Source of the DNA: Caldisericia bacterium
GTDB lineage: Bacteria > Caldisericota > Caldisericia > JAAYUI01
DNA length: 64,000 bases
Direction: 5' to 3'
NCBI GenBank assembly: GCA_017992555.1
Contig: JAGOOK010000001.1
Span: 36,134 to 100,133, forward strand
The position numbers were made by a program, and so were the translations under genes. How positions within the stretch are numbered: position 1 is the first letter of the stretch; every line of letters starts with the position of its first letter. Shown in pieces: positions 12,554 to 61,145 of the stretch. The notes under the pieces are model-generated. The model was not told the DNA's origin, did not search any database, and saw only the letters and a list, made by a program, of their open reading frames with translations.

Positions 12554-15208
12554 ATGGAAAAAACATTGATATTGACCGAGAAGCCTTCAGTTGCCGCCGA
12601 TATAGCACACGCACTAGGCGGTTTCGACAAAAAAGAGGATTTTTACGAGAGTGATGACACCTATATAACATGGGCAGTCGGTCACCTTGTAACACTGGCC
12701 GAGCCTGAGGATTATGACAAGGGCTATAAGTATTGGACCTTACAGTCCCTTCCGATAATCCCCAATAAATTCGAGCTCAAGCCAATCCCAAAATCTGAAA
12801 GCAGGCTGAAAAAGATAGCTTCGCTGGCAAAAAAATCCTCAACACTTGTAAATGCCTGTGATGCTGGCCGTGAAGGTGAACTGATATTCAGGTATATCTA
12901 TGAATACCTTGGACTTGAAGCACCGACAAAAAGGTTGTGGCTCCAGTCCATGACCAAATCGGCAATTGCTGACGGTTTTGAAAGACTCAGGCCGTCAAAA
13001 GAGCTGGACAACCTTGGAGAGTCGGCAAAGTGTAGGTCGGAGGCGGACTGGCTCATTGGAATCAATGCGACAAGGGCATTTACGAGGAGACTTGGCAATC
13101 TTCTCTCGATTGGAAGGGTACAGACACCGACACTCTCGATAATCATCTCGAGGGAAAAAGAGATAAATGCTTTTGTCCCAAGAACATACTTTGATATTTT
13201 CGCAGAGTTTGAAGCCAAATCTGGCGTTTACAGGGGGAAATGGTTTATCGATGTTCCCAAAATCTCAAAAGAAAAAAACGCCCCAATAACCGATGAGATT
13301 CTGGCCTCGCTAGTAAAAAAATATGGCCAGATAGCAACATCTGCCCTTAAGGCCAATGATGGTGCCGTCCAGGGTGATACCGTCGAATCTGTTGGGGATA
13401 AAAAAGCTGCTGATGAGATAGTTAGCAGGATCAAGGGAAAAGAAGGCAAAGTTGTTGTTGAGGACCATAAGCTCCAGAGACAGAGTCCGCCGCTCCTTTT
13501 TGATCTCAATGAACTCCAGAGAGAGGCCAATAGAAGATTTTCCTTTTCTGCTGCCAGAACCTTACAGCTTGCCCAGCAACTTTACGAAGAGAAAAAACTG
13601 GTCACCTACCCAAGGTCTGACAGTAAACATCTTCCCGAGGACTACACGGATGTTGTTCCGAGAATTTTTGGTGTGCTTTCCCACACAAAATATGACAAGG
13701 TGGCCCTGCCGCTTGTTGGCCAGAAGGTCGCAAAAAACAAGAGAATATTTGATAACAAAAAGATCTCTGACCACTTTGCAATAATCCCCACAGAAAAATC
13801 GCTTGAGGAAGTATCTCTTACTCCAGAACAGGCAAAAATTTATGACCTGATAGTAAAAAAATTCCTTGCAGCGTTCTACCCGGATGCAGTCTGGGAGGTC
13901 GTGCACAGGGTGACCCAGGTTGACGGGCTTGATTTCAAATCTGATGCTAAGAGTCTTAAAGAAAAAGGTTTCTATGCTGTTTATGGAAGGGAAGAGCAAG
14001 AGGAATCTTCTCTTCCGGTGGTCGCAGAAGGCGAAACAGTGGATACTGTTGCACAGGAATTGCAGGAAAAACAAACCACACCACCGCCAAGATACAACGA
14101 GGCAACCCTCCTTGGAGCGATGGAAATGGCTGGCAAGTTTATTGATGACGAAGAACTCAGAGATGCCATGAAGGAAAAAGGCCTGGGAACTCCGGCTACG
14201 AGGGCTTCTATCATCGAAAGGATACTGGAAGTTGGCTACATCGAGCGTGTTGGTAGGGACCTTGTTCCAACAACAAAAGGAATAGCACTGTACGATCTTC
14301 TGATTGGTTTCCCTCTTCCAGAGCTATATTCACCAGAAATGACCGGGAACTGGGAATACAAGCTTGCCTGCATTGAAAAGGGCGAGATGAGTCCCGAGGA
14401 TTTCCTTGGCGAAATAGTTAACTTTACAAAACAGCTTGTAAACAAGGTGAAGGACAGGAGCCTCGATGCTCCAATTGCCAACCAGGATGGCAACGGAGAG
14501 GCGAGAGCCATTGGAACTTGCCCTCTTTGTGGAGAAGATGTTGTTGATTCTTTCATGTCCTTCAGGTGCGCCAACTACAAATCCACAAAAACCAAAAAAG
14601 GCGCAAAGAAAACGAAAGCCAAGGAAGAAGATGAGGAGAATGGATGCAGTTTTGCGATCTGGAAAACGATTGCCGGAAAAATCATTACCGAGGATGTCGC
14701 AAAAGAACTCATCGAAAAGAAGAGAGTGGGTCCTCTTTCCGGTTTCAGATCAAAATCTGGCAGGCCATTTTTTGCCACTCTTCTGCTTGGTGATGACGGT
14801 AAAATAACCTTCGAATTCTCCAAAAGCCAGAGCGAGGGTGGACAGGAAAAAACAAAAACAGAAGAAGTTTTCCTTGAGGACCCTGTTGCAAAGTGTCCGG
14901 TCTGCAAGGCCGATATCCTCGAGGGTACTTCGGTATATCGTTGCCAAAACTTTGGCAAGTCTTGCAAAATGTCCCTTAGTAAAGTAATTTTAGGGAAGAC
15001 CATAGCTCGCGAAACGGCCGCCAGGCTTTTTGAAGAAGGCAAGACAGAAAAGATTTCAGGCTTCATAAGTCGCAAAGGCAGGCCGTTCTCTGCGTATCTG
15101 GTCTTAAAAGATGACGGGAAGGTAGGGTTCGAATTTGACAATGCAACAGGAAGGACAGCAAAAGGCGCATCCAAAGTTTCAAAGCCAAAAACTAAAAAAA
15201 GCAAATAG
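12554..15208 (+). CDS. topB: DNA topoisomerase III (type IA) with duplicated C-terminal Zn-ribbon / topoisomerase C-terminal repeat modules
   Basis: TOPRIM N-terminus (LILTEKPSVA...WAVGHL) and type IA core. Two C-terminal modules each have a Cys cluster plus G(F)xSKxGRPF...L..DGK..FEF. Confidence 0.9.
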   Translation: MEKTLILTEKPSVAADIAHALGGFDKKEDFYESDDTYITWAVGHLVTLAEPEDYDKGYKYWTLQSLPIIPNKFELKPIPKSESRLKKIASLAKKSSTLVNACDAGREGELIFRYIYEYLGLEAPTKRLWLQSMTKSAIADGFERLRPSKELDNLGESAKCRSEADWLIGINATRAFTRRLGNLLSIGRVQTPTLSIIISREKEINAFVPRTYFDIFAEFEAKSGVYRGKWFIDVPKISKEKNAPITDEILASLVKKYGQIATSALKANDGAVQGDTVESVGDKKAADEIVSRIKGKEGKVVVEDHKLQRQSPPLLFDLNELQREANRRFSFSAARTLQLAQQLYEEKKLVTYPRSDSKHLPEDYTDVVPRIFGVLSHTKYDKVALPLVGQKVAKNKRIFDNKKISDHFAIIPTEKSLEEVSLTPEQAKIYDLIVKKFLAAFYPDAVWEVVHRVTQVDGLDFKSDAKSLKEKGFYAVYGREEQEESSLPVVAEGETVDTVAQELQEKQTTPPPRYNEATLLGAMEMAGKFIDDEELRDAMKEKGLGTPATRASIIERILEVGYIERVGRDLVPTTKGIALYDLLIGFPLPELYSPEMTGNWEYKLACIEKGEMSPEDFLGEIVNFTKQLVNKVKDRSLDAPIANQDGNGEARAIGTCPLCGEDVVDSFMSFRCANYKSTKTKKGAKKTKAKEEDEENGCSFAIWKTIAGKIITEDVAKELIEKKRVGPLSGFRSKSGRPFFATLLLGDDGKITFEFSKSQSEGGQEKTKTEEVFLEDPVAKCPVCKADILEGTSVYRCQNFGKSCKMSLSKVILGKTIARETAARLFEEGKTEKISGFISRKGRPFSAYLVLKDDGKVGFEFDNATGRTAKGASKVSKPKTKKSK

Positions 15209-17696
15209 GCTTTTCTGGACAGTTTTAAGGTTCGGCCTTGCCGTCGGTTTTGTAGTGGCCATTGCCCTTGCTCTTTTCATATACAGGGTTGGATCGGATG
15301 TTGTTGCGACCTTGCCAAATCTTGATGAACAGAAGAGGCCGCCAGTGGCGTCCCAGATATTTGATTACGACAACCAGCTAATAGGCTCCGTCTTCTTTGA
15401 GGACAGGATACCTGTAAAGATAAATGAAGTTTCAAAGGATTTTCTCAATACGATAGTGACCTCTGAGGATGAAAGGTTTTACCAACACAAAGGTTTTGAT
15501 CTTCGTTCAATCTTCAGGGCATTTTTTGTCAACATAAAGACAGGTTCCATGAGTCAGGGTGGTTCTACGCTAACCCAACAGGTTGCCCGTTCGGAGCTTT
15601 TTATAGACAGCAAAGAAACTTCGGTCACAAGGAAGATCAAGGAAATAATACTGGCATTCAAGCTTGAGCAGCGTTACACAAAAGAAGAGATTCTGGAAGC
15701 CTATGTGAACCAGATATTTTTCGGGTTTGGTTCCTATGGTGTGGAATCTGCAGCTAGAAACTATTTTGGGAAACATGCAAAGGACCTCAACTATGCAGAG
15801 AGCTCTCTTCTCGTGGCGATCCTTCCTGCTCCTTCGGTTGACAACCCCATAATCAACCTTGCTGGCACAAAAGAGCGCCAGAAAAACGTTTTGCGAAAAC
15901 TTGTTGTAAACGGGGTAATAACTGAAGATGAATCAAAAAAATATTTTGAGGTGCCGTACCAGCGAAAATCTTTCAGGGAAGTCGGGGACAACGATTCCGT
16001 AAACTACTTCATCGACTACGTCAAAGCCGAGATGGAGAAGCGCTACGATCCGAAAGACCTGAAAGAGGGTGGCCTCAGGATCAAGACAACGCTTATCAGA
16101 TCCTACCAAAAATATGCCGAGAACGCCATGAGAAATGTGTTTGCAAAAGCAGAAAAAAGTGGCGAATTCTCCTCAAAGGTTTTTGACGAATTTGGTGTAA
16201 AACAGCCCCAGGCTTGTTTTGTGGCAATGAACCCCCGCAATGGGTATGTTCTCGCAATGGTCGGCGGAAGAGACTACAAAAACACAAAGTGGAATCGCAC
16301 AACAGCAGAAAGGCACCCCGGCTCGTCATTCAAGATTTTCGATTATTCGGCCGCACTTGAGAACAGGTCTGTCACCCCTGCCTCTATTCTCAAATCCGAT
16401 TACAGCTTTAATGTAAATGGCTGGAACCCGGGAGAATGGAGCCACAGCGTTACCAACAAGCTTTATACTGTAAGAGGCGCACTTTTGACCTCTTCGAATG
16501 TCTGTGCATTGAGAGCGGGCCTTAGGGTTGGACTAGATAGGGTCGCTTACTATGCAGCCAAAATGGGCCTCAAGACCCCAATAATGCCTTATCCATCAAT
16601 TACTGTAGGTTCAGTTGAAGTCAGACCTGTTGATATGTGCACTGCCTATGCCTCTCTCGCTTCAGGTGGAATACGCCATGATCCAGTTGCTATTCTGGAA
16701 GTACAAAACAGGGACGGGATAATAATCGAGCGCTATCAGGGCACAGGTTTTAGAGTGCTTTCTGAAGAAACAGCCTGGACACTCGGAAACATTTTTCAAG
16801 ACGTCCTCCATTCAATCCTTGGTTCAACAATAAAAACGCCGGCGGCTGGAAAAACTGGAACTTCTACAGGTTCTCTTAATGCTTGGTATTGTTGCTTTAC
16901 ACCAGAAATAACCGTTACCTGCTATGTTGGTAAAGACTCTAAGAAGGTCATGAGCGCTGTCAACACAATCATCTGGGGTTCTTCAATGGCAGCCCCAATG
17001 GCAAGAGATTTTGTGAATGCCTGCCTTACTGATAAAAAACATCCTCTGCCAAAAACCCCATTCCCGCCAGCCCCAAAAGGCATGACAGGAAGTATTTTTT
17101 GTAAAACATCTGGTGAGCTCGTCAATGGCTTTTGCCCAAAGGACCAGATTAGCAGCGATTATTTCTTTGCCGGGACCACACCTGACACTCCATGCCAATA
17201 TCACAAACAGGGCGTTTTCCCATACAATGTTGTTGAAGAAACTGTTGACGGGAAAAAATATTACTATAAACCAGGAAATTCCTGGTGTGTGACAAAAGAA
17301 GTTCTTCTTTCAAAAGATGTTTACGAAAAGCTACCGGCAAAATCTGATTGCCCGGCACTGATTAACTTTACGATCTCTGACCAGTCGGGACAGTTGCTCC
17401 AAGAACCCTACTCATTCTCCAAGGGCGGCATTTATAATCTGGATGTTGTGATACCCCAGGATGTTCTTGGGAAATTCAACGAAGTGGACGTTTATTTTGG
17501 TGACATGCGGGTAAAAAAATGGCAAGAGGGTGATCTTGATTCCGATACAGGTCAAAAAGTGGAATTCAGTTCACCGCTCAACGCCATGTTTGCTGTGTCT
17601 CCGGATGATGCAAACAAAACAAAAAAACTGATTTTTGAGATAAGAGGCCCGGGTGGCTTTTATCTCAAAAAGACTTTTGATGTGGGGATAAGCTAG
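15135..17696 (+). CDS. class A penicillin-binding protein (glycosyltransferase + transpeptidase), copy 1
   Basis: TM anchor, GT51 motifs (EDERFYQHKGFD, GGSTLTQQ), transpeptidase SxxK (GSSFK) and KTGT. TTG at 15135 or ATG at 15141; either overlaps the topB 3' end by about 70 nt. Confidence 0.9.
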   Translation: MTMQQEGQQKAHPKFQSQKLKKANRLFWTVLRFGLAVGFVVAIALALFIYRVGSDVVATLPNLDEQKRPPVASQIFDYDNQLIGSVFFEDRIPVKINEVSKDFLNTIVTSEDERFYQHKGFDLRSIFRAFFVNIKTGSMSQGGSTLTQQVARSELFIDSKETSVTRKIKEIILAFKLEQRYTKEEILEAYVNQIFFGFGSYGVESAARNYFGKHAKDLNYAESSLLVAILPAPSVDNPIINLAGTKERQKNVLRKLVVNGVITEDESKKYFEVPYQRKSFREVGDNDSVNYFIDYVKAEMEKRYDPKDLKEGGLRIKTTLIRSYQKYAENAMRNVFAKAEKSGEFSSKVFDEFGVKQPQACFVAMNPRNGYVLAMVGGRDYKNTKWNRTTAERHPGSSFKIFDYSAALENRSVTPASILKSDYSFNVNGWNPGEWSHSVTNKLYTVRGALLTSSNVCALRAGLRVGLDRVAYYAAKMGLKTPIMPYPSITVGSVEVRPVDMCTAYASLASGGIRHDPVAILEVQNRDGIIIERYQGTGFRVLSEETAWTLGNIFQDVLHSILGSTIKTPAAGKTGTSTGSLNAWYCCFTPEITVTCYVGKDSKKVMSAVNTIIWGSSMAAPMARDFVNACLTDKKHPLPKTPFPPAPKGMTGSIFCKTSGELVNGFCPKDQISSDYFFAGTTPDTPCQYHKQGVFPYNVVEETVDGKKYYYKPGNSWCVTKEVLLSKDVYEKLPAKSDCPALINFTISDQSGQLLQEPYSFSKGGIYNLDVVIPQDVLGKFNEVDVYFGDMRVKKWQEGDLDSDTGQKVEFSSPLNAMFAVSPDDANKTKKLIFEIRGPGGFYLKKTFDVGIS

Positions 17697-17703
17697 GCTG
17701 GCG

Positions 17704-20406
17704 ATGCTCCCAGTTCCACTACCAAGAACAAGTACGAAAAAACCTAGAGGGTTCCCATTTCTGGTTTTTCTTGTGCTTCTTGTTATGGTGGTAGTTTTTT
17801 CTGCGGCTTTCTATCTCGCATTCATTGTTTCGGACTATGATGTCAGGTGGCTACCCACAATCCTTGATCCAAAAAACCACAAGCCGCCAAATCCCCATGA
17901 AACTGTTAATGAAACAAACAGGATCTTTGATGCCGAGGGGAACCTTATCCATGAGTTCCATGGCGATGAGGACAGGATATATGTCCCGCTCGAACAAATT
18001 TCCGAATGGGCCAGAAAAGCAATCATCGCGTCTGAAGATGTAAGGTTTTATTACCACAAGGGTTTTGACATGAGGGCGACCCTGAGGGCGTTTTTTAAGA
18101 ACGTTCAAACACGCGAGGCCTCTGAGGGCGGCTCAACCATCACCCAGCAGCTTGCCAGAAACATGTACCTTGGAACCGGAAAAACCCTTTCAAATGAAAG
18201 AACTTTCACTAGAAAGCTGAAGGAGTTGCTGCTGGCCCGGAAAATAGAGCAAGCTTACTCTAAAAATGAAATCCTGGAATTCTACCTGAACCAGGTCTAC
18301 TTTGGCTCAAGGGCCTACGGGATAGAATCTGCGGCAAAGAGATATTTTGGCATTTCAGCCAAAAACCTTACGCTTGCCCAGTCATCCATGCTTGCAGGCG
18401 TCCTGTCTTCGCCTTCATTCAACAACCCCTATGACAACCTTGCAGAGGCCAAAAAAGCCCAGGACATTGTCCTCGAGAAGATGGCCAAAAACGGCTTCAT
18501 AACTGATATCCAGATGGAAAAAGCATCAAAGGAGAAGCTCAATTTTCAGCCATATTCCATCCAGCTCAAAGCTGGCGATTCCCTTGGCTATTTCATAGAT
18601 TATGTCAAAGATGAATTATATGACAAGCTCGGAGAGTTCCCGATCAAAAAAGGTGGTCTGGACATATACACAACCATAAACCAAGACTGCCAGAAGTATG
18701 CCCTCCAGGCAGTTGACAAAGTCCTTGGGGAGGCCATAAGGGCCGGTGACTTTGGCAAGATCCAGAAAGACAAGCTCGGAGTTGAACAGCCACAGGTGGC
18801 CCTTTGTGCCATTGATGCAGATACTGGACAGATACAGGCAATGGTTGGCGGAAGGGACTACAAGAACACCCAGTACAACAGGTGCACGGCACTGAGACAG
18901 CCTGGCTCTTCATTCAAAATACTTGTCTACAGCGCGGCGCTCCAGCATGGCGTCCTTTCACCATCAAGCCTGGTCCGCTCCAGCCCGATTTCGATTGGCG
19001 ACTGGCAGCCAAAGGAATGGTTCAGGGGATATTTTGGGACTGTAACAGTCAAGTATGCACTCCAGGAATCAAGCAACATCTGCGCAATAAGGGCTGCCCT
19101 GAAGGTCGGGCTTGGCAATGTTGTCGCAACAGCGAAAAAAATGGGCATCAGCACATCAAAGCTGCTTGCCGTGCCATCCATTGCCATTGGCTATGTAGAG
19201 GTCAAACCCATTGAGATGGCCTCTGTCGGGCAGACTATTTCAAACTATGGAACCCACATACCACCGATTGCCATCAAGAGGATAGAGAACAGAAAAACGG
19301 GCAAAACCATTGATCCTGCCTATGGGCAACCAACCAGGGCAATCGACGAGCCAACAGCATACGACATGATCTCGATGTTGAAGAACGTTGTTGAGCGCGG
19401 CACAGGAATGTCGGCCAGAGTGCCTGGCGTTCCGTGTGCTGGAAAAACCGGAACGACGGGCTCCTTCAGGGACGGCTGGTTTGTTGGCTTCACCCCTGAA
19501 ATCTCTGCCTCGGTTTATCTTGGCTCTGACTCCAGAGAGGTCGATTTGTCATTTGTTTCCAACTATGGATCAAAATATTCAGCACGCATCTGGAAAGAGT
19601 TCATTTCGATGTATTCAAAGGGCAGGACGATCAAGGACTGGGTGGACAAGAACCCTGATGATTACGTCAGAGTGAAAGTCTGTGAGGAAACCGGACTCAT
19701 GGCAAATGACACGTGCCCGGGTTATTACATGCTCGTAAGAAAGAGCAAGATGCCAAGTGAAAAATGCGAAATAAACCATCCAAAGAAGATTTTTGTAACA
19801 ATATGCAAAGAAACCAAACTCCTGGCCAACCAATATTGTCCCGAGAAAGAAAAGGTCGAATTCGAGCTTGGCAAGGAACCAAAAAAATTCTGCGAAGTCC
19901 ACAAAAAGCCTGAAGACAAGAAACCCGAAGATCAAAACAAACAAATCGACGAAGAAAAGCAGCCTTCGGGGAAAGACACTCAGAAGCCGCCCACAAAGAA
20001 ACCTTCCACCGAGAAGCCTGGCAATGGAGGGAAAGATACAACTCCCGGCACAAAACCGCCAATTGATAAACCAAATCCGGAGCCACAACCCCAACCTGAA
20101 CCGGAGCCACAGCCAGAGCCTGAACCCCAACCCGAACCGGAGCCGAGGTACTTTTTTGTCTCCCCAAGCCAGGCTTCAGCCTCGGTTGGGGAGTTTGTCA
20201 GGTTTGACTACGTTTTCAATTACGAAGGGGTCAGCTGGGTAACGATGTATGTGGACGGTGTCCAGGTAGACACGGCAACGAGCTTCCCCTGGTCAATTGT
20301 CTGGGCGCCGAGATCGGCCAAAACTTACAATCTCCTTTTTATTCTCTACAATGATGCGGGCGGAAGGGTGGCTGAGTATTCAAGGTCATACACGGTGTAC
20401 CCATGA
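17704..20406 (+). CDS. class A penicillin-binding protein, copy 2, with Pro/Glu/Gln-rich linker and C-terminal Ig-like domain
   Basis: Same motif set as copy 1 (EDVRFYYHKGFD, GGSTITQQ, GSSFK, KTGTT). 900 aa. Confidence 0.9.
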   Translation: MLPVPLPRTSTKKPRGFPFLVFLVLLVMVVVFSAAFYLAFIVSDYDVRWLPTILDPKNHKPPNPHETVNETNRIFDAEGNLIHEFHGDEDRIYVPLEQISEWARKAIIASEDVRFYYHKGFDMRATLRAFFKNVQTREASEGGSTITQQLARNMYLGTGKTLSNERTFTRKLKELLLARKIEQAYSKNEILEFYLNQVYFGSRAYGIESAAKRYFGISAKNLTLAQSSMLAGVLSSPSFNNPYDNLAEAKKAQDIVLEKMAKNGFITDIQMEKASKEKLNFQPYSIQLKAGDSLGYFIDYVKDELYDKLGEFPIKKGGLDIYTTINQDCQKYALQAVDKVLGEAIRAGDFGKIQKDKLGVEQPQVALCAIDADTGQIQAMVGGRDYKNTQYNRCTALRQPGSSFKILVYSAALQHGVLSPSSLVRSSPISIGDWQPKEWFRGYFGTVTVKYALQESSNICAIRAALKVGLGNVVATAKKMGISTSKLLAVPSIAIGYVEVKPIEMASVGQTISNYGTHIPPIAIKRIENRKTGKTIDPAYGQPTRAIDEPTAYDMISMLKNVVERGTGMSARVPGVPCAGKTGTTGSFRDGWFVGFTPEISASVYLGSDSREVDLSFVSNYGSKYSARIWKEFISMYSKGRTIKDWVDKNPDDYVRVKVCEETGLMANDTCPGYYMLVRKSKMPSEKCEINHPKKIFVTICKETKLLANQYCPEKEKVEFELGKEPKKFCEVHKKPEDKKPEDQNKQIDEEKQPSGKDTQKPPTKKPSTEKPGNGGKDTTPGTKPPIDKPNPEPQPQPEPEPQPEPEPQPEPEPRYFFVSPSQASASVGEFVRFDYVFNYEGVSWVTMYVDGVQVDTATSFPWSIVWAPRSAKTYNLLFILYNDAGGRVAEYSRSYTVYP
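20077..20145 (+). repeat. coding low-complexity tandem repeat (PE/PQ dipeptide units) inside PBP copy 2
   Basis: 23 codons reading PEPQPQPEPEPQPEPEPQPEPEP, from repeated CCN-GAR/CAR hexanucleotides. Confidence 0.8.
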
Positions 20407-25213: not shown

Positions 25214-25756
25214 CTATTCCTCCTTGGCTACGATATAGTTCCTGTAGAAAGCAAACAAAGGAACTGTGATTATCGATGACATTGTTCCAAGAATCAAGTT
25301 GAATATCGGTGCAATGAAATAAACAAACTGGCTCATTCCCTTAAGATCCAGGCCGTAGAATTTTATTGAGATCATGTTTGTTGGAATCATAATTAATGTT
25401 CTGGCAACAACTCCAACGAGCAATGCAACACCAAGCCAGATCAAATAATTCTTGTTTTTTGAGAATGGCTTGAAGACTGCGTAGGAAACAAGGCAGAATG
25501 TTGACATTGCGATAAAGTTTGCCACATGCCCGATTGGTTCAGGTGCTATAAGGAAATGGTGCAACAAATCCTTGATTGCAATAATCAAGACACCGGCAAC
25601 TGGCCCAAACGCGAATGTTCCAAGGAGACAAAAAGCTTCCGAGAAATCAAACTTGAGGTTTGGGTCCATCCAGGATGGAACCTGGAAAATCATTCCAACA
25701 AATGCAAGACAGGCTAAAACTCCGATAATTGCGATGGTTTTTACAGACATTTTCAT
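25214..25756 (-). CDS. ribU: ECF-type riboflavin transporter S component
   Basis: 180-aa, roughly six-TM ECF S-component-like protein immediately downstream of an FMN riboswitch. Confidence 0.8.
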   Translation of the reverse strand: MKMSVKTIAIIGVLACLAFVGMIFQVPSWMDPNLKFDFSEAFCLLGTFAFGPVAGVLIIAIKDLLHHFLIAPEPIGHVANFIAMSTFCLVSYAVFKPFSKNKNYLIWLGVALLVGVVARTLIMIPTNMISIKFYGLDLKGMSQFVYFIAPIFNLILGTMSSIITVPLFAFYRNYIVAKEE

Positions 25757-25762
25757 GTAGTA

Positions 25763-25918
25763 CTCCTTTCCGCCAAGTCGGGGAAAATATACGGAAAGAA
25801 GAGACCTTCTTTCATCCGGACTTTACCGTCGGCCCCGGAATTTCACCGGATCTGCAAGGCTTTGCCTTGCTTGCGGGCTTTACCGCCGATAGGGAATTTC
25901 ACCCATCCCCGAAGGCAT
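25763..25918 (-). promoter_or_regulatory. FMN riboswitch (RFN element) with Shine-Dalgarno-sequestering expression platform
   Basis: Minus-strand RNA reads CCUUCGGGGAUGGGUGAAAUUCCCUAUCGGCGGUAAAGCCCGCAAG...GAUCCGGUGAAAUUCCGGGGCCGACGGUAAAGUCCGGAUGAAAGAAGG. This matches the RFN consensus blocks and the P1 stem (CCUUC/GAAGG). Confidence 0.9.
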
Positions 25919-25926
25919 TCTGGATT

Positions 25927-26625
25927 CTATAAAAGAATTTGATTATCTTCAAGGTCATAAAGCGACCTCAACAGCTCCTGGGTTATATTTTTTGGCTCAC
26001 CCTGCCAGAAAATCCTGCCATCTTTTAAGAAGACTGTCCAGTCACAAAAAGCCCTTGCCAATGATGTGTCATGCACAACGGCAACAGCGCAGTTTTGCGG
26101 CCCAAGCCTTTTCTTTATCTCTGCAAAGGTCTTGACCTTGTACTTCAGGTCGAGGTGGGCTGTAGGTTCGTCCAGAAGGTAAACCTTGGGGTCCCTGATG
26201 ACAGTTTGGGCAAGCGATGCCCTTTGCAGTGTACCATCAGAAAGATCTGAAATAGGGGTATTTCTGAACGCCACAAGGTCAAAGTCTTGCAAAACATTAT
26301 CCAGCTTGTTTTCGTCGGCAACAGTCAATCCGAGCGACACGTAGGTGGAGAGCGGAAGTTTGATCGTTCCTGATTTTACTGGCCTTTGGACTGCGACGGT
26401 TTTTGACAGTTCGTCGAGTGTATAGCTTTTTGTGTTTTTGCCAAGCACCGATATGCTGCCTGCGAAAGTTTTTGCGATGCCAAAGAATGCCTTTATTATG
26501 GTTGATTTGCCTGAGCCATTGGGCCCCATGAGGCCGACAAGTTTTGAACTTTCGACATCAAACGAAACATTATCAATGACAACTTTGTTTCCGTATCCGG
26601 CCCTCAGGTTTTTGATTATTACCAT
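25927..26625 (-). CDS. btuD: ABC transporter ATP-binding protein (iron-siderophore/cobalamin type)
   Basis: Walker A (GPNGSGKST), signature (LSDGTLQR), Walker B (LLDEP). Start moved to the ATG at 26625 (MVIIKNL). The operon is led by a B12 riboswitch. Confidence 0.85.
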   Translation of the reverse strand: MVIIKNLRAGYGNKVVIDNVSFDVESSKLVGLMGPNGSGKSTIIKAFFGIAKTFAGSISVLGKNTKSYTLDELSKTVAVQRPVKSGTIKLPLSTYVSLGLTVADENKLDNVLQDFDLVAFRNTPISDLSDGTLQRASLAQTVIRDPKVYLLDEPTAHLDLKYKVKTFAEIKKRLGPQNCAVAVVHDTSLARAFCDWTVFLKDGRIFWQGEPKNITQELLRSLYDLEDNQILL

Positions 26626-27620
26626 GACGGCTTCCTTGATACCAGATAGAAGAAGAACAGACCGCCAACAATGTTCATGATGACCGAAGCCGGGACCTCC
26701 TGGAACGGCATTATCGATCTCCCCACCGCATCGGCAAGACCCAGTGTTATTCCACCCAGCAAAATACTGCATGGAACAACATATCTGGACTCCCCACCAA
26801 CGATCCTTCTGGAGATGTGTGGTGTTATGAGGCCAACAAAACCCATCAGGCCAGCAGTTGTGACCGCCATACCTGTCAGGAGCGAGACAATCACAAACAT
26901 CAATGATCTGAGCTTGACGGGGTTTACGCCAAGGTAAGTGGCCTGTTCGTCGCCAAGCAGGTAAGCATCCATCTTTCTTGGAAGCCCTGTGAGCATGGCA
27001 ATCGATATGGTGACTGCGATGGCGAGGAAAATGACCCCGGTATAGGATGAGCTAGAAAGACCGTTGTAGCTCCAGAAAAATGTTTTCTGGAGGATGTCCC
27101 TGCCCAGCACCACAATGATGTAATTTAGCCCTGCAAACACAAACGAGAGCGCAACGCCGGCGAGCACGAGACTGGTGCCTGTGCTGCCGGTCCTTCCGGA
27201 AAGCAGCCATATTATCAGGCAGGCGAGAACCGCACCAGCAAACGCGAAAATAGAGACTGCGGAAAATCCCAGGATGGACAGGCTGGCGCCTGAGAGCAGC
27301 GCTATATTGACCCCAAATATTGCGCCTGAACCGATGCCTGCGATGTACGGATCTGCAAGATCATTCCTGAAGAGTGTTTGTGAGAGTGCTCCGGCAAGCC
27401 CCAGAGCCATGCCGGAGAGAACAGACACAAGCATTCTTGGCAATCTCATGAGAAGGATTATCCTCGTGTGGGTTTCTGGGGAATCACCAAAACCAAGAAT
27501 GCTTGCTATCGCTTTTATTGCATCAATCGGGCCGATGCCTGAAGAGCCAAAGAGGAGCCCGACAAACATCACAATAAACAGAGCAAAAACAAGCAGTACG
27601 ATTATTCTGGTTTGTTTCAC
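26619..27620 (-). CDS. btuC: FecCD-family ABC transporter permease (cobalamin/iron-siderophore type)
   Basis: 333-aa polytopic membrane protein of the FecCD/BtuC family by overall similarity; sits between the binding-protein gene and the ATPase gene of this operon. Confidence 0.88.
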   Translation of the reverse strand: MKQTRIIVLLVFALFIVMFVGLLFGSSGIGPIDAIKAIASILGFGDSPETHTRIILLMRLPRMLVSVLSGMALGLAGALSQTLFRNDLADPYIAGIGSGAIFGVNIALLSGASLSILGFSAVSIFAFAGAVLACLIIWLLSGRTGSTGTSLVLAGVALSFVFAGLNYIIVVLGRDILQKTFFWSYNGLSSSSYTGVIFLAIAVTISIAMLTGLPRKMDAYLLGDEQATYLGVNPVKLRSLMFVIVSLLTGMAVTTAGLMGFVGLITPHISRRIVGGESRYVVPCSILLGGITLGLADAVGRSIMPFQEVPASVIMNIVGGLFFFYLVSRKPSW

Positions 27621-28438
27621 TTGCCAACAATCTGCGAGATTATCTTCAGTGCGTCCAGCACCCTTGGGCTTGGCCTCATCAAAAGATCATCATTCATTAT
27701 GTATATGGAACCATTTTTGGCGGCCCTGGTTTTGGCAATACCTTGCCTCTTCTCGATTTCGACGACTGTCTTTTTGTATGATTCCGGAACGATAATTACT
27801 TCTGGATCAAGGCCGGCGATTGCTTCTTCTGAGAATGTCGGGAAATCGCCCTCAAGCCTGTCGCCAACATTCTCGGCTCCAACCCACCTTATCATGTCGG
27901 CACCAAGCGAGCTCTTGCCAAATGTTGTTGGCGGATTGTCCCATATTTCGAGATAAACCAATTTTTTGCTGCTTTTGATGGTCTCTTTGCGGAGCGAGTC
28001 AATCTCTGGCCTGAGCTCCTGGGACTTGGCCGGCAGACCACAGATGTCTGCAACTTTGTCTATTGTGCCCAGAACATCATTTATGGTTTGCGGATCAAAG
28101 GTCTCGACCCTTATCCCGGAAGATTTTATCTTGTTTATGACATCAAGCGGAATGAGCCTGTTCACAAGAACGACGTCTGGTGAAAGCTCAACTATGCGCT
28201 CTGTTTTCAGCGTGTATGGGTCCCCAAGGCTTTCCACTTTAGCGACTTCCGGAGGATAGTTGCACCATGAGGTCCTCCCAATGAGCCTGTCGCCTGCACC
28301 AACAAAATATACTATCTCCGTGATGTTTGGTGAAAGGGAGACAATCTTCTCCGGGGCATTGGCAGAAGGCTGGGCTGGCTGGACTCCGCAAGAGCAGAGC
28401 ATGAACGCCAGCAATAAAACAGACAATATCTTTTTCAT
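27617..28438 (-). CDS. btuF: periplasmic-binding-protein family lipoprotein (BtuF-like cobalamin binding protein)
   Basis: Start set at the ATG at 28438 (MKKILSVLLLAFMLCSCG, lipobox) with GGAGG upstream. PBP type 2 fold pattern (IVSLSPNITEI). The upstream part of the tracked ORF is riboswitch RNA. Confidence 0.85.
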   Translation of the reverse strand: MKKILSVLLLAFMLCSCGVQPAQPSANAPEKIVSLSPNITEIVYFVGAGDRLIGRTSWCNYPPEVAKVESLGDPYTLKTERIVELSPDVVLVNRLIPLDVINKIKSSGIRVETFDPQTINDVLGTIDKVADICGLPAKSQELRPEIDSLRKETIKSSKKLVYLEIWDNPPTTFGKSSLGADMIRWVGAENVGDRLEGDFPTFSEEAIAGLDPEVIIVPESYKKTVVEIEKRQGIAKTRAAKNGSIYIMNDDLLMRPSPRVLDALKIISQIVGK

Positions 28439-28444
28439 ATTTAC

Positions 28445-28592
28445 CTCCTCGGGTTTTCGCAAAGACGGTCTCCTGGCTTGCGACTTGGCGTCTTGCGGGG
28501 TTTCCTTCCCGGTTGCCCAGTGGATTCCCCAGACTTGCCGCTTACAGTGGCGGGACCGCGCCGGATTCTCACCGGCTTCCGCTGCCTTTGCA
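28445..28592 (-). promoter_or_regulatory. cobalamin (B12) riboswitch
   Basis: Minus-strand RNA reads GGAAGCCGGUGAGAAUCCGGCGCGGUCCCGCCACUGUAAGCGG...CCACUGGGCAACCGGGAAGG...GCCAGGAGACC. The B12 box GCCACUG and flanking conserved blocks are present. Confidence 0.88.
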
Positions 28593-28598
28593 TGGTCG

Positions 28599-28626
28599 AG
28601 TCTAGCCTTGCGTTGGTCCTTGTCAA
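28599..28626 (-). promoter_or_regulatory. putative promoter of the B12-riboswitch/btuFCD transcript (TTGACA-16nt-TAGACT)
   Basis: Minus-strand hexamers at 28626-28621 and 28604-28599. Confidence 0.4.
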
Positions 28627-28647
28627 GATTGAATGCCAACATACAAT
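28620..28647 (+). promoter_or_regulatory. putative radA promoter (TTGTCA-16nt-TACAAT), 7 nt upstream of the GTG at 28655
   Basis: Plus-strand hexamers at 28620-28625 and 28642-28647. The -35 overlaps the -35 of the divergent btuF promoter. Confidence 0.4.
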
Positions 28648-56939: not shown

Positions 56940-57688
56940 TATTTTGCCTCCAGAATGGACCTGCAGAATTCGAGGTCCTCTATTTTATCAACATCAACGC
57001 CCAGCTCCGGGCACGGCAGCATTGGCGCTTTTATGGCAACGCCAAGCATTTTTGAAATTCTTTTCTCAAGCTCTGGTATCCCAACATTCTTGAACAAAAG
57101 CAATCTCAGAAGGAATGGCACGCCAAGCTGGAGTGCCTGCTTTATGGCTGACTTTCTCCTCTTCGATGTTTCCTCGACTATTGGCTCCACCTTTTTGTAG
57201 GCGGTTTTGCTGATGTAGAAGAGGTTTCCGACTTTGACATTTCCCTCTTTGATGCGAAGAAAAGTGCGCTTTGTTCCGGGGAACATCCTCAGCGTGTCTT
57301 CTTTGGTTATAATTGGCAGCCCCAGGTCACACCCTGTTTTCTGAAGTGCGGAAACCACCATATCGAAGGTTTTTTCAGTTACCAGCGGGATGTCGTTTGT
57401 CGTTATGACGAAATATTCGGTCTCTGATGCATCCACAAGGCGATCTATGTTTGCCTTCTGGCTGTCGCCCTCCTCCAGCATCAGGTCCACCTTGGATTTT
57501 ACTGAATCCGGGTAGCCATCCCCAACAAGGATTATCCTGTTTGTGAAGGAAGACTTGCGAAGCGCATCGATGACGTATTCAATTGATGGCTTGCCTGCAA
57601 ATGAAAGCATGCCCTTGTTGGGCACGCCTTCATTTGCGAACCACGGTTCAACTCCGCCGCCGCCTAATATTGCAAAATCTATTTTCAT
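56939..57688 (-). CDS. MobA-like nucleotidyltransferase family protein (unknown substrate)
   Basis: N-terminal AILGGGG...G.PNKGML.F.GKP nucleotide-binding signature. 249 aa. Confidence 0.6.
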   Translation of the reverse strand: MKIDFAILGGGGVEPWFANEGVPNKGMLSFAGKPSIEYVIDALRKSSFTNRIILVGDGYPDSVKSKVDLMLEEGDSQKANIDRLVDASETEYFVITTNDIPLVTEKTFDMVVSALQKTGCDLGLPIITKEDTLRMFPGTKRTFLRIKEGNVKVGNLFYISKTAYKKVEPIVEETSKRRKSAIKQALQLGVPFLLRLLLFKNVGIPELEKRISKMLGVAIKAPMLPCPELGVDVDKIEDLEFCRSILEAK

Positions 57689-60018
57689 TTTGGATATGTC
57701 AGCGTTATCTTTCTTGTGGCGCCTTCCCAGGCCACACCTGCCCCAAGGGCTTCTCCAACAAACCTTAGCGGCAACATGGTTTTTGCGCTAATGATTGTTG
57801 GATAGAGCTTTTGGGCTTTCGAGTCAATAAAAACCTCTTTGCCGTTTATCTTGGCGGTTTTCTTACCAATCCACAGCTCGACAACATTCTTCCCGTTCCA
57901 GAGCGATTGGGTCAAAGTGACCTTTTTTTCTGCACCATCATACCCGACCTGTGCCCCAAGCGCCTCTGCGACTTCCCTTATTGGCATGTATGTGCTCCCG
58001 CCAAGTTCTTTTGGGAGCGGTGGCGAGGAAGATGTTGGAGCGGTCTTGAGTGTCACTTTAAGGCCGTTTATGGTGATGTCCGTTTTGTCCAGCCAGAGCT
58101 CTATTGTGACGGCATAGATTACATCAACAGTGATTTTCTTGTTCTGGCTGCCCAGTGTTGCCGAGATTTCAAACCTGTTGAGCCCCGGGATAAGCGTTAC
58201 TGAATAGTTCGCCTTTCCGCTCTGATCCACAGTTGCCGGCTTGCCACCAATCGTCACTGTTGCACCCTTTGTTGTGGAGATCGGGATTGTATAGCCTGGG
58301 GAAGTAGTTTTTAATGGGGTACCAGAGAAACCGTTGACCGAGAGATCAAGAAGTGCTGCAGACTCGACCAATACTTTAACAGTAACAACAGTTTTCCCTG
58401 CATTGGAATCAATTGTCACTTCGCCTGTCAGAATACCTTCCGTGTTTGGCTCTACTGTGATGTTTATCTTGCACCTGTCGCACTTGAATGACGACGGATC
58501 GACTTTTATCCATGGGGCACTCGCAGTAATTGTCCCTTCAAGCATTCCGCCTTCGCCAGCCTGCTCGATGATTTCGATCTGGAGAGACTTCTTTGTGTTT
58601 TTTGGTATTTTGCCAAAATCCAGCTCTGATGGCTCAATTTTCAGAATCATTCCGGATTTTTTGTAGGTGAAACCCACTGCAATTTCTGAATTGCCGCCGT
58701 TGCTTTCAATTGACAGTTTCCCTGAATACGGCCCTGGTTCGAGGCCAAGCGGGTCAACAGTCATGATTGTTTCAAAAGAACCATCTGGCTCGATTTCAAA
58801 TTCTGATTGTTCGGTCCTGAGCCATGGCTCTGAGGATTTGATGGTTGCTGAGAGTTTTCCAGTCCCAGTGTTCTTAAAAGTGAGTTTTTTTGTTATGGTT
58901 GTTGAAATCTCACCGAGACCAAACGATTTTTCTGCAACTTCGAGTTTTGGTTCCTCGGCCACCTTTTCACATTCAAACTTCCAGATGATGTTGCCAATCA
59001 ATTTTTCACCTGATTTTGACTTTATGCCGGACTGGCCGCTTTTTGCGTAGAACGTATACTTCTTGCCCTCTTCAAAGGCCTTGTTTGGAGTAAATGTGCA
59101 CTTTGACCCGGAGACAGACGCTTTCCCAGAAACAGCGAGGCCATTCTGGTCAACCAGGAGCACTGTACTCTCGTTGAATGTTGTGGGGTCTATGTCCTTG
59201 TCAAATGATAGCGAAAGGGGCGAGTTTGGCGATACCTTGCCAGGGAGCGGATTGGTGAGGTGAGGTGCTTTGATTTTCCATGCACCATAAGCATAAACCT
59301 CGAATGTATCCTGGTCGAATATCGCTACCGCGGCACCAAGCTCTTCTTTTGTCCAGTCTTCTTTGAGATCAAAACTGGCCGTGAGCTTCTTGGTTTCGCC
59401 ATTTTTGATGCGCATAGTTGAACCCTTTGCAGAGGGTTTGATTGCATGCACGACATGCTGGAAATACTGGTCTTCCCTGTCCACATTGTCCTCAAAGAGG
59501 AAGAAAGTGTACCTGAGCGTTGCCTGGTCGAGAGGACCAAACTGCTCAACCATGGCCTCAAAATCGATCTTTTGCCCTGCGGCCTCTTCCTTCAATTTTG
59601 CATTCAGGGAGACATTAAAGCTAAGGGGTGAGGAGCGGACCTTTGAAACCGTGTCCTCAACTTCCTTCTCGGTCATACCCGACCTCTTTATAAAATTGCC
59701 ATTGAAAGCTATTGTCGGATAAGACTTTCTTTCATACATCTGCCCCCTTTTGTCTACTTCTTCAATATAAAACTCGTCGTTGGGGTTTGAATGCAGCCTT
59801 AGTTTGATGATAGAGTCCGAGCCAAGTTCAGACTCGAGTTTGTCCATACTGCGCACGGCAGTGTGACACTTCGTTCAGTTCGGCTCCACAAAAATTTCGC
59901 AGAATGCTGCACGTTTCGGAGTGAAATCTGAAACGGAGAGCGGCATTGTCCTCGAGTAGACCTGGACGGTCTGTGAAAGCATAAGAGAGAGTAGAACAAT
60001 TACTGACAGTTTTTTCAC
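57685..60018 (-). CDS. exported multidomain protein (signal peptide, thioredoxin-fold domain with UxxC, Ig-like domains, two C-terminal copper-amine-oxidase-N-like repeats) interrupted by one in-frame TGA at codon 48; candidate selenoprotein, otherwise a pseudogene or split gene
   Basis: GTG at 60018 (GTGA overlap with the alr stop, GGAAGGAGG upstream) opens MKKLSVIVLLSLMLSQTVQVYSRTMPLSVSDFTPKRAAFCEIFVEPN-TGA-TKCHTAVRSMDKL... in the same frame as the tracked 723-aa ORF (57685-59856). Confidence 0.6.
59841..59868 (-). promoter_or_regulatory. hairpin 6 nt downstream of the in-frame UGA (candidate bacterial SECIS)
   Basis: RNA UGUC-AC-ACUGC-CGUGC-GCAGU-AUG-GACA: 4-bp lower stem, internal loop, 5-bp upper stem, 5-nt apical loop containing GU. 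The apical loop lies about 18-22 nt after the UGA. Confidence 0.35.
59875..59877 (-). other. in-frame TGA codon (candidate Sec codon, position 48)
   Basis: Hand translation base by base. 60018 and 59856 are in the same frame (both divisible by 3 on the minus strand). Confidence 0.8.
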
Positions 60019-61145
60019 AGCTCGGCCTCCTTCCCTGATTGTTTATAAACAAATTTAGTCCTGCCACCAAGACCAGTCAAGATTTCATATGGGGTGGTTT
60101 TCAGGACCTCAGACAAATCTTTTACAGTAACAGCCTCATCGGCATCTTTCCCAATGAGCGTTACCCTATCTCCAACCTCAACTCCCGGAATGTCTGTCAC
60201 ATCGATCATGAATTGATCCATGCAGATTCTTCCTACTATTTTGGTTTTTTTGCCCTGGACCAGCACGAAGCCACCATTCTTAAGGTTCCATCTCCATCCG
60301 TCGGCATATCCCACAGGCACAGTTGCGATGACCCTTGTAGAATCAGCGATAAAGTCCCTGCCATAGCCGACACTTTCGCCCTTGTGAATGACTTTCATGT
60401 CGCAAACAACGGAGGCCCATGAAAGTATCGGCAGGAGCTCCTGGTCGAACCTCCCGCCAACTGGCACCCCGTAGAGCATCATGCCCGGCCTGACCATGTC
60501 AAAATGGTACTCCGGGTAGTTCATTGTTGCGGCTGAAGCGGAAGCATGGAGTATTGGTGCTGCTCCCATTGCCTTTGCCTCAAGAGCTACTGCAATGAAG
60601 AGATCGGCCTGGTGCTTTGTGAATTCAGGATCGGAATCAGCCGTGGCAAAGTGGGTAAACAGGCCGCTGATCCTGATTTTTGGGAGCTTCATCACGCTTT
60701 TTATGAATGGCACCGAGTCCTTGACCGATATTCCGGCCCAGCACATGCCTGTATCAACCTTTATGTGCACTGGCACAGGAACAGGTGTCAGCCTGTCAAG
60801 CTCTACCGCAAGCTGGTAGTCAAAAATGGTTGGGGTGATTTGGTAATGGAGGATGTCAGAAGCATAAGCGGAATGGGTATAGCCAAGTATGAGTATTGGG
60901 CAGACAACGCCCCCTGCCCTGAGCCTGATCGCCTCCTCCGGGGTCTGGACGGCAAGCCAGTCTGCCCCGTTATGGGCGAGGGCCTGTGCGATTGCAACAT
61001 CGCCATGGCCGTATGCGTTGGCTTTTACAACAGCCATCACCTTTGGCGCCTGAGAGATCCTCCGGACCAGGCCAAGGTTTGATATCAACTTGTCGATGTC
61101 TACCGTTGCCAGTGATGGCAATACTTTCTCTGGTGCGAGACTCAT
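60015..61145 (-). CDS. alr: alanine racemase
   Basis: PLP-lysine motif AVVKANAYGHG. 376 aa. Confidence 0.93.
   Translation of the reverse strand: MSLAPEKVLPSLATVDIDKLISNLGLVRRISQAPKVMAVVKANAYGHGDVAIAQALAHNGADWLAVQTPEEAIRLRAGGVVCPILILGYTHSAYASDILHYQITPTIFDYQLAVELDRLTPVPVPVHIKVDTGMCWAGISVKDSVPFIKSVMKLPKIRISGLFTHFATADSDPEFTKHQADLFIAVALEAKAMGAAPILHASASAATMNYPEYHFDMVRPGMMLYGVPVGGRFDQELLPILSWASVVCDMKVIHKGESVGYGRDFIADSTRVIATVPVGYADGWRWNLKNGGFVLVQGKKTKIVGRICMDQFMIDVTDIPGVEVGDRVTLIGKDADEAVTVKDLSEVLKTTPYEILTGLGGRTKFVYKQSGKEAEL

Follow-up and report, generated by a model that had tools for sequence, protein, structure and literature searches.

An in-frame UGA at a thioredoxin-type redox motif, conserved together with a downstream SECIS-like hairpin, points to an exported selenoprotein in Caldisericota

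The subject of this analysis is a 64,000-nucleotide stretch of a Caldisericia bacterium genome (assembly GCA_017992555.1, contig JAGOOK010000001.1, positions 36,134 to 100,133), referred to below in its full length as the window. The minus strand of positions 57685-60018 of this window forms a single open frame that is interrupted by one TGA only. We conclude that this frame is very probably one gene for one exported UxxC selenoprotein, in which a hairpin of the selenocysteine insertion sequence (SECIS) type would direct selenocysteine (Sec, U) at residue 48. This conclusion is carried by the conservation of the UGA, the Cys found in its column in homologs, the homology to thioredoxins, the covariation and geometry of the hairpin, the coding constraint upstream and downstream of the UGA and the domains that make up the product. 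The features of the gene on which the argument turns are as follows.

57685..60018, minus strand: complete proposed selenoprotein gene, 777 codons, with UGA as Sec at codon 48, followed by the stop at 57687-57685
60026..60034, minus strand: ribosome-binding site GGAAGGAGG, 7 nucleotides upstream of the GTG start
59953..60018, minus strand: predicted signal peptide MKKLSVIVLLSLMLSQTVQVYS, with a basic n-region, a hydrophobic core and no lipobox Cys, read from the sequence
59875..59877, minus strand: in-frame UGA that we propose to encode Sec (residue 48), opening the redox motif U-T-K-C
59866..59868, minus strand: resolving Cys (TGT) of UxxC, residue 51, an invariant alignment column among the UGA forms and with the Cys forms
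59848..59862, minus strand: SECIS-like hairpin, with stem ACUGC (59862-59858), loop CGUGC (59857-59853) and stem GCAGU (59852-59848)

The GTG start at 60018-60016 overlaps the stop of alr (GTGA), and a GGAGG-type site together with a GTGA or ATGA overlap is also present in three of the orthologous loci fetched for comparison (L004, L005 and L006). From this GTG, 47 codons that open with MKKLSVIVLLSLMLSQTVQVYS lead to the TGA at 59877-59875, downstream of which the frame remains open for 729 further codons until the stop at 57687-57685. The six ortholog lineages whose 5' end is complete all have an N-terminus of this type. The residues around the UGA read AAFCEIFVEPN-[UGA]-TKC-HTAV...SYPTIAFNG, and the GTG at 59856, listed as the start of a 723-residue open reading frame (ORF), is an invariant Val codon within the hairpin loop (59854-59856). 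The GTG at 60018, the 47 codons, the TGA, the continued frame and the motif context had all been described in the initial annotation of this stretch, and each of these statements holds on re-reading. Its view of TGA as otherwise an ordinary stop is likewise borne out, as this codon is the commonest true stop in the window and terminates 32 of 52 genes; the genetic code is therefore not reassigned.

A scan of one genome per species placed the locus in three Caldisericota/Caldisericales metagenome-assembled genomes (MAGs), at 99%, 97% and 88% protein identity. An exhaustive HMMER search, in which the 214 residues downstream of the UGA served as the query, returned few close relatives (P0002 at 60% identity, P0001 at 56%, P0003 at 45%, P0004 at 38% and P0005 at 30%). 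P0001-P0004 are called from a Met or Val a few codons past the UGA and P0005 from a Met further downstream; since all of these starts lie past the UGA, the calls are truncated, and they lack both the signal peptide and one half of the active site. A word-index protein search found one relative, and a metagenome scan for more orthologs returned only lineages that were already known. In each fetched ortholog contig an ORF of 47-48 codons with a signal peptide lies between alr and the annotated gene, its terminal TGA being in frame with that downstream gene. The neighbourhood alr - X - NTP_transf_3 - uppP - recG - ABC-F - nuo, where X is the gene described here, is conserved across the orthologs.

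The UGA occupies the identical codon in six ortholog lineages at 36-99% protein identity over the thioredoxin/Omp28 domain, and the five lineages besides the window's own range from 88% down to 36% over that domain. Its carriers are the window and loci L002-L004, L005, L001, L006/L007, L008, L010, L014 and L015, drawn from independent assemblies (NCBI MAGs, JGI, ENA and Logan). More independent assemblies of the window's own lineage exist, of which L010 was checked and carries the TGA. L015 (positions 297-1094, Logan SRR20820740) is a distant family member of about 255 residues, at 25% identity and from an unrelated metagenome, which is also UGA-interrupted and has the motif FVEEFGTVT-U-PSC. 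All sequence-level tests suggested in the initial annotation favour its proposal. Retention of the UGA in orthologs, also in its favour, extends over six lineages plus L015. The N-terminal segment, whose absence from homologs would have spoken against that proposal, is conserved as well and lies under purifying selection. The last 26 codons ahead of the UGA gave ratios of nonsynonymous to synonymous change (pN/pS) of 0.08-0.58 against the five other lineages, and on either side of the UGA the ratio stays below 1. Upstream, the signal peptide and the strand motif FCEIF[VT]EP[NH] are kept, while the codons directly after the UGA (xKCHTAV...) are conserved, including the invariant Cys.

Distant homologs (20-27% identity) with full N-termini read ...E[LV]FT[AG]TWC-x-x-C[PH]..., and a MAFFT alignment of seven UGA forms with ten Cys forms places the UGA in the column of the first Cys of the CxxC. 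All ten of these homologs, with ...[TS]xxC-x-x-C... in common, therefore have Cys where a Sec-to-Cys correspondence had been proposed. Neither the second Cys nor the Pro of [YF]PT varies across the alignment. The Cys homologs reach Pfam Omp28 PF11551 at 35-63 bits, and in several of them the CxxC region is covered by a match to Thioredoxin PF00085 as well. Among solved structures, the family profile matches thioredoxins (1fo5 at E=2e-9, 1nho at E=2e-8), with the CxxC falling on their CPHC/CPYC site, and it also matches protein disulfide-isomerases, the DUF1223 protein 2axo and HBP35. In an AlphaFold model of the Cys homolog P0016 (predicted local distance difference test score, pLDDT, 87.6) the CxxC lies between a strand at 44-51 and a helix at 57-71, and the best PDB match of this model is HBP35 of P. 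gingivalis (E=6e-13, TMq 0.65 over 250 columns). An AlphaFold2 (AF2) model of window residues 49-262 (pLDDT 77), which is without strand beta-1, matched HBP35 5y1a at E=1e-6 and Omp28 2r2c at E=3e-5. The thioredoxin fold originally suggested for this segment is upheld by the profile match to 1fo5, by the invariant Pro and by the P0016 model. The strand, redox motif, helix and cis-Pro of a thioredoxin-fold CxxC-type oxidoreductase are all present as judged from the alignment and the models, and the module can be specified further, as a thioredoxin-like domain joined to a beta-sandwich of the Omp28 type.

59254..59949, minus strand: thioredoxin-like plus Omp28-like (HBP35-like) module, residues ~24-255, from NCBIfam, the profile and the AF2 model
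59718-59716, minus strand: Pro codon of the cis-Pro motif YPT

One Cys homolog, P0034 (L023:52-3165), immediately follows an AhpC-TSA/Redoxin gene and a DUF6029 gene. Its position beside the AhpC-TSA/Redoxin gene fits a redox role, and these neighbours hint at a redox operon for the Cys forms.

The conserved hairpin begins 12 nucleotides past the UGA, where three unrelated stem sequences occupy the same register.

Window: 5' stem ACUGC, loop CGUGC, 3' stem GCAGU
L008: 5' stem CCGAU, loop CGUGA, 3' stem AUCGG
L014: 5' stem CCUAC, loop CGUUG, 3' stem GUAGG

Covariation statistics were computed on seven distinct sequences. Pairing was found in 91% of the hairpin cells, with changes on both sides at 4 of the 5 pairs, and the covariation was 0.495 as against 0.193 in shuffles, none of 500 of which reached the observed score. 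When the partner columns were slid as a control, just 14-43% were paired. The initial annotation had drawn a hairpin beginning 6 nucleotides past the UGA; its upper stem of 5 base pairs and loop of 5 nucleotides are conserved, with compensatory changes in the UGA-bearing orthologs, but the start moves to 12 nucleotides. The lower stem that it had drawn from 59868 is not kept in the orthologs and was rejected.

Positions 1-3 of the loop (CGU) are invariant. The Val codon in the loop (GUN) is invariant in the UGA forms only, whereas T, D, Y, E or S stands there in the Cys forms, and L015 presents the identical CGUGC loop on a CGCU/AGCG stem in another reading frame, where CGU encodes Arg; the constraint therefore acts on the RNA and not on the protein. 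Synonymous divergence (pS) was 0.25-0.33 in the nine codons past the UGA versus 0.60-0.97 upstream in the comparisons with L005 and L006, and no synonymous dip past the UGA was seen in those with L004, L008 and L014. Counted from the U of the UGA, the window loop is C21 G22 U23 G24 C25 and the G-U of L015 stands at 23-24; in E. coli fdhF, with its UGA at codon 140 and a SECIS defined by experiment, the loop has G23-U24. On both strands of the window, a UGA flanked by open frames and followed by a spacer of 10-15 nucleotides, a stem of 5 base pairs and a GU loop is found at this one site only. A bacterial SECIS is recognised as a stem-loop right after the UGA, whose apical loop holds a conserved G (G-U) at SECIS distance (PMC1794560), and the sequence has this arrangement, as predicted for a SelB/SECIS-dependent selenoprotein gene. 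As a control, the single Cys-homolog gene examined (L023) has an imperfect stem (4/5) with a GAGUG loop downstream of its first Cys codon. This imperfect stem could be due to chance or could be a SECIS remnant.

Explanations other than selenocysteine were weighed against these data. That the TGA is a nonsense mutation, a mark of a pseudogene, or a sequencing or assembly error would explain the mere presence of a stop codon and nothing more, and we give it next to no probability. The identical TGA recurs in more than ten independent assemblies and in lineages diverged to 36% identity (25% for L015), and it is surrounded by synonymous changes, with no further disruptions. A sequencing or assembly error, an alternative that had been put forward at the outset, and a recent nonsense mutation are excluded, as the same TGA is found in independent assemblies. 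A true stop at the UGA would leave a 47-residue secreted peptide and a separate protein of about 720 residues starting from the GTG at 59856 or the ATG at 59847. Such a division matches the annotation by every gene caller, and most orthologs do have a GTG and an ATG located 7 and 10 codons past the UGA. However, in the ortholog L014 the first 55 codons past the UGA include no ATG, GTG or TTG, and this start-free stretch contains the conserved HSNPxD and FPT ([YF]PT) motifs; ribosomes must therefore read through the UGA. L008 has no ATG in the corresponding stretch, and with start codons lacking in this way a separate gene, or termination followed by re-initiation, cannot explain the family. 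A true stop would also divide one thioredoxin active site and fold over two polypeptides, although the codons between the UGA and the candidate starts are conserved, including the invariant Cys. The large product would be without a signal peptide despite domain types that are all extracytoplasmic, and no ribosome-binding site was noted ahead of the GTG or the ATG. Termination at the UGA is thus very unlikely.

The data require read-through as such, and it might be achieved without selenocysteine, by a near-cognate tRNA (Cys or Trp) or another factor, perhaps aided by the hairpin, in a lineage without Sec machinery. We hold this to be improbable, and about equally so the version in which selA, selB, selC and selD are all lacking from the lineage and the UGA and hairpin drive a SelB-independent recoding (Cys, Trp or a new factor) at the redox site. 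Several results nevertheless weigh against selenocysteine, and those on the Sec machinery favour such recoding. When E. coli SelA, SelB and SelD were used in tblastn against the window and all fetched loci, only LepA was matched (by the SelB query), and ARAGORN found no tRNA gene, and with it no tRNA-Sec, within the window or 10 loci. NCBIfam annotation of about 40 window genes gave housekeeping functions only and no sel genes, look-ups past both window ends revealed no sel genes, and no credible second selenoprotein or other UGA-interrupted gene was found within the 64-kb window. Caldisericum exile AZM16c01, the only Caldisericota entry found in the table of Mariotti et al. 2015 (supplementary file 20), is recorded there without SelD, SelA or the Sec trait. 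Sec utilisation is not counted among the core functions of Caldiserica by Nobu et al. 2022, and Caldiserica are not in the supplements of Peng 2016. Among the papers listed by a literature search, none links Caldisericota or Caldiserica with Sec use, and the literature on the phylum is mildly negative for Sec. The Sec trait is distributed patchily within phyla, and the species represented by the MAGs differ from C. exile; the record therefore amounts to a gap and not a contradiction, and little can be concluded about these Caldisericales MAGs from the lack of the trait in C. exile. As for the hairpin, it is short (a stem of 5 base pairs), its stability on its own is no better than that of shuffled sequence (z=-0.61), it has no Rfam family match at the gathering score or at E<=10, and its compensatory changes are drawn from only two ortholog lineages plus L015. 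Its significance lies in conservation and covariation and not in folding energy. What recoding without Sec leaves unexplained is that the UGA falls exactly at the nucleophilic Cys of the CxxC, a classic Sec/Cys pair, that the position of the hairpin and its G-U loop fit the SelB-binding geometry of E. coli fdhF, and that the identical loop is found in the distant L015 from another metagenome. A plain Cys codon would moreover be simpler, and is used by the other homologs.

Beyond the thioredoxin/Omp28 module, the remaining length of the protein is taken up largely by domains of other kinds.

58975..59238, minus strand: Big_5 bacterial Ig-like domain, residues 261-348 (Pfam PF13205, E=2e-11)
58375..58950, minus strand: two BACON/HYDIN-type Ig-like domains, residues 357-446 and ~462-548 (PF19190, PF22544, PF13004)
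57703..58002, minus strand: C-terminal Cu_amine_oxidN1 domain, residues 673-772 (Pfam PF07833, E=4e-26)

In Pfam and NCBIfam, residues 357-446 correspond to a BACON_2/HYDIN-type Ig domain and residues ~462-548 to a BACON/choice-of-anchor D domain. The Ig-like and Cu_amine_oxidN1 domains are all extracytoplasmic types, and the latter we presume to be an envelope-association module. Two Cys homologs (P0011 and P0021) share the thioredoxin-Omp28-Big_5 arrangement at the N-terminus.

If the gene is a selenoprotein gene, translation would begin from the GTG at 60018 by coupling to the stop of alr, and the UGA at 59877-59875 would be decoded as selenocysteine. The stem-loop 12 nucleotides downstream would present its G-U apical loop in the manner of a bacterial SECIS that recruits SelB with Sec-tRNA(Sec). 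After export and cleavage of the signal peptide, the mature protein would open with the thioredoxin-fold domain, in which the Sec of U-T-K-C, placed first in the motif where helix 1 begins, would be the nucleophile and part of a selenylsulfide redox centre. This domain would be packed on the Omp28-like beta-sandwich, as in P. gingivalis HBP35, and three to four Ig-like domains would be followed by the C-terminal Cu_amine_oxidN1 domain, probably retaining the protein at the cell envelope. The protein is likely to act as an extracytoplasmic selenol/thiol-disulfide oxidoreductase. The lineage may retain the whole Sec machinery for very few selenoproteins, perhaps just this one at the cell surface.

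Other observations were made on the window and its surroundings. Just beyond the window, L021:13824-21509 encodes a 2708-residue protein with Glucodextran_B and, faintly, Cu_amine_oxidN1; given this faint second occurrence, Cu_amine_oxidN1 is maybe a recurrent surface module in the organism. The L021 locus lies on a 715,601-bp JGI contig, Ga0573185_39882. A Peptidase_C25 (gingipain-type) protein is encoded at the left edge of the window (184-2352, plus strand), and two tandem genes for penicillin-binding proteins of the PBP1A family (853 and 900 residues) are found at 15135-20406 on the plus strand. An FMN riboswitch (115 bits; 25800-25920, minus strand) lies upstream of a 180-residue ORF (25214-25756), possibly for a riboflavin transporter, that NCBIfam did not match at E<=1e-25. 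A cobalamin riboswitch (75 bits; 28468-28580, minus strand) lies upstream of a BtuC/BtuD-like ABC transporter operon (25927-28642), where the 341-residue ORF at 27617-28642 overlaps the riboswitch and therefore has its real start further downstream. In all Caldisericota loci a gene with a PatA_N domain and then a gene for a small Ras/Arf-like GTPase lie upstream of the TPR-tldD-pmbA-alr block (L005:3445-4643, L006:6048-7249 and L009:2285-3477).

If our reading is true, the gene provides the first sequence-level evidence that we have found for selenocysteine decoding in Caldisericota, the only cultured species of which is listed without the trait. It would also correct a systematic mis-annotation, every database copy being truncated, without the signal peptide and with only half of the active site. 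The selenoprotein catalogue, mostly of small cytoplasmic or periplasmic enzymes, would gain a large, envelope-associated protein of many domains. The sources consulted assign no function to the Omp28/HBP35-type thioredoxin module, and a Sec form of it would point to genuine redox catalysis at the cell surface. The compact SECIS-like element, with its stem of 5 base pairs, CGUGN loop and 12-nucleotide spacer, would serve as an example for SECIS modelling.

Among known systems, the thioredoxin-like plus Omp28 module also underlies NF045500 ('Omp28-related selenoprotein'), a family of selenoproteins curated in NCBIfam. Positions 4-268 of its model align to residues 5-249 of the window protein at 32.8 bits (E=4.7e-8), with the curated cut-off set at 200 bits. 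Residues 5-249 also weakly match NF033782 (Omp28 family lipoprotein); the Cys homologs and L015 score 24-86 bits with NF045500/NF033782. The NF045500 model has 377 positions, whereas the window protein has 777 residues, with the additional Big_5, BACON/Ig and Cu_amine_oxidN1 domains and no lipobox. The window protein is thus a distant relative of NF045500 and not a member. No paper mentioning both Omp28 and selenoprotein was found in the full-text literature searched. Pfam PF11551 has a gathering score of 34.9 bits and did not list the window protein at E<=0.1, so that the relation of the window module to Omp28 is one of remote homology and not of membership by the curated threshold. HBP35 (5y1a) and the Omp28 domain (2r2c, PF11551), the best structural matches, share with it a secreted thioredoxin-like domain on a beta-sandwich, but they come from Bacteroidota, have Cys in place of Sec or no redox motif at all, and reach 12-20% sequence identity.

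An exported Sec-containing thioredoxin domain had been called unusual in the initial annotation, and is less so in the light of NF045500 and of the exported UxxC selenoproteins already catalogued, namely DsbA-like, DsbG-like, thiol:disulfide interchange and thiol-disulfide isomerase-like proteins (Zhang/Gladyshev families; PMC9312934). Like the window gene, these families have Sec at the first position of the motif in a thioredoxin fold, and were predicted through a conserved UGA, Cys homologs and a downstream SECIS. In contrast to it, they belong to the Thioredoxin_2, _4, _8 and DSBA Pfam families and are single-domain proteins without the Omp28 module or a surface architecture; none is reported from Caldisericota in the papers checked. 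The hairpin resembles the SECIS of E. coli fdhF as a stem-loop after the UGA with an apical loop at nucleotides 21-25 that contains G-U (G23 U24 in fdhF, G22 U23 in the window). It differs in having neither a bulged U nor a conserved lower helix, in its stem of 4-5 base pairs and in its loop, CGUGN in the window family as against (A)GGUC(U) in fdhF. Thus, the mechanism and the kind of motif are standard, while the lineage (Caldisericota), the subfamily (about 7 known lineages, all mis-annotated as truncated ORFs) and the large multidomain surface architecture are new.

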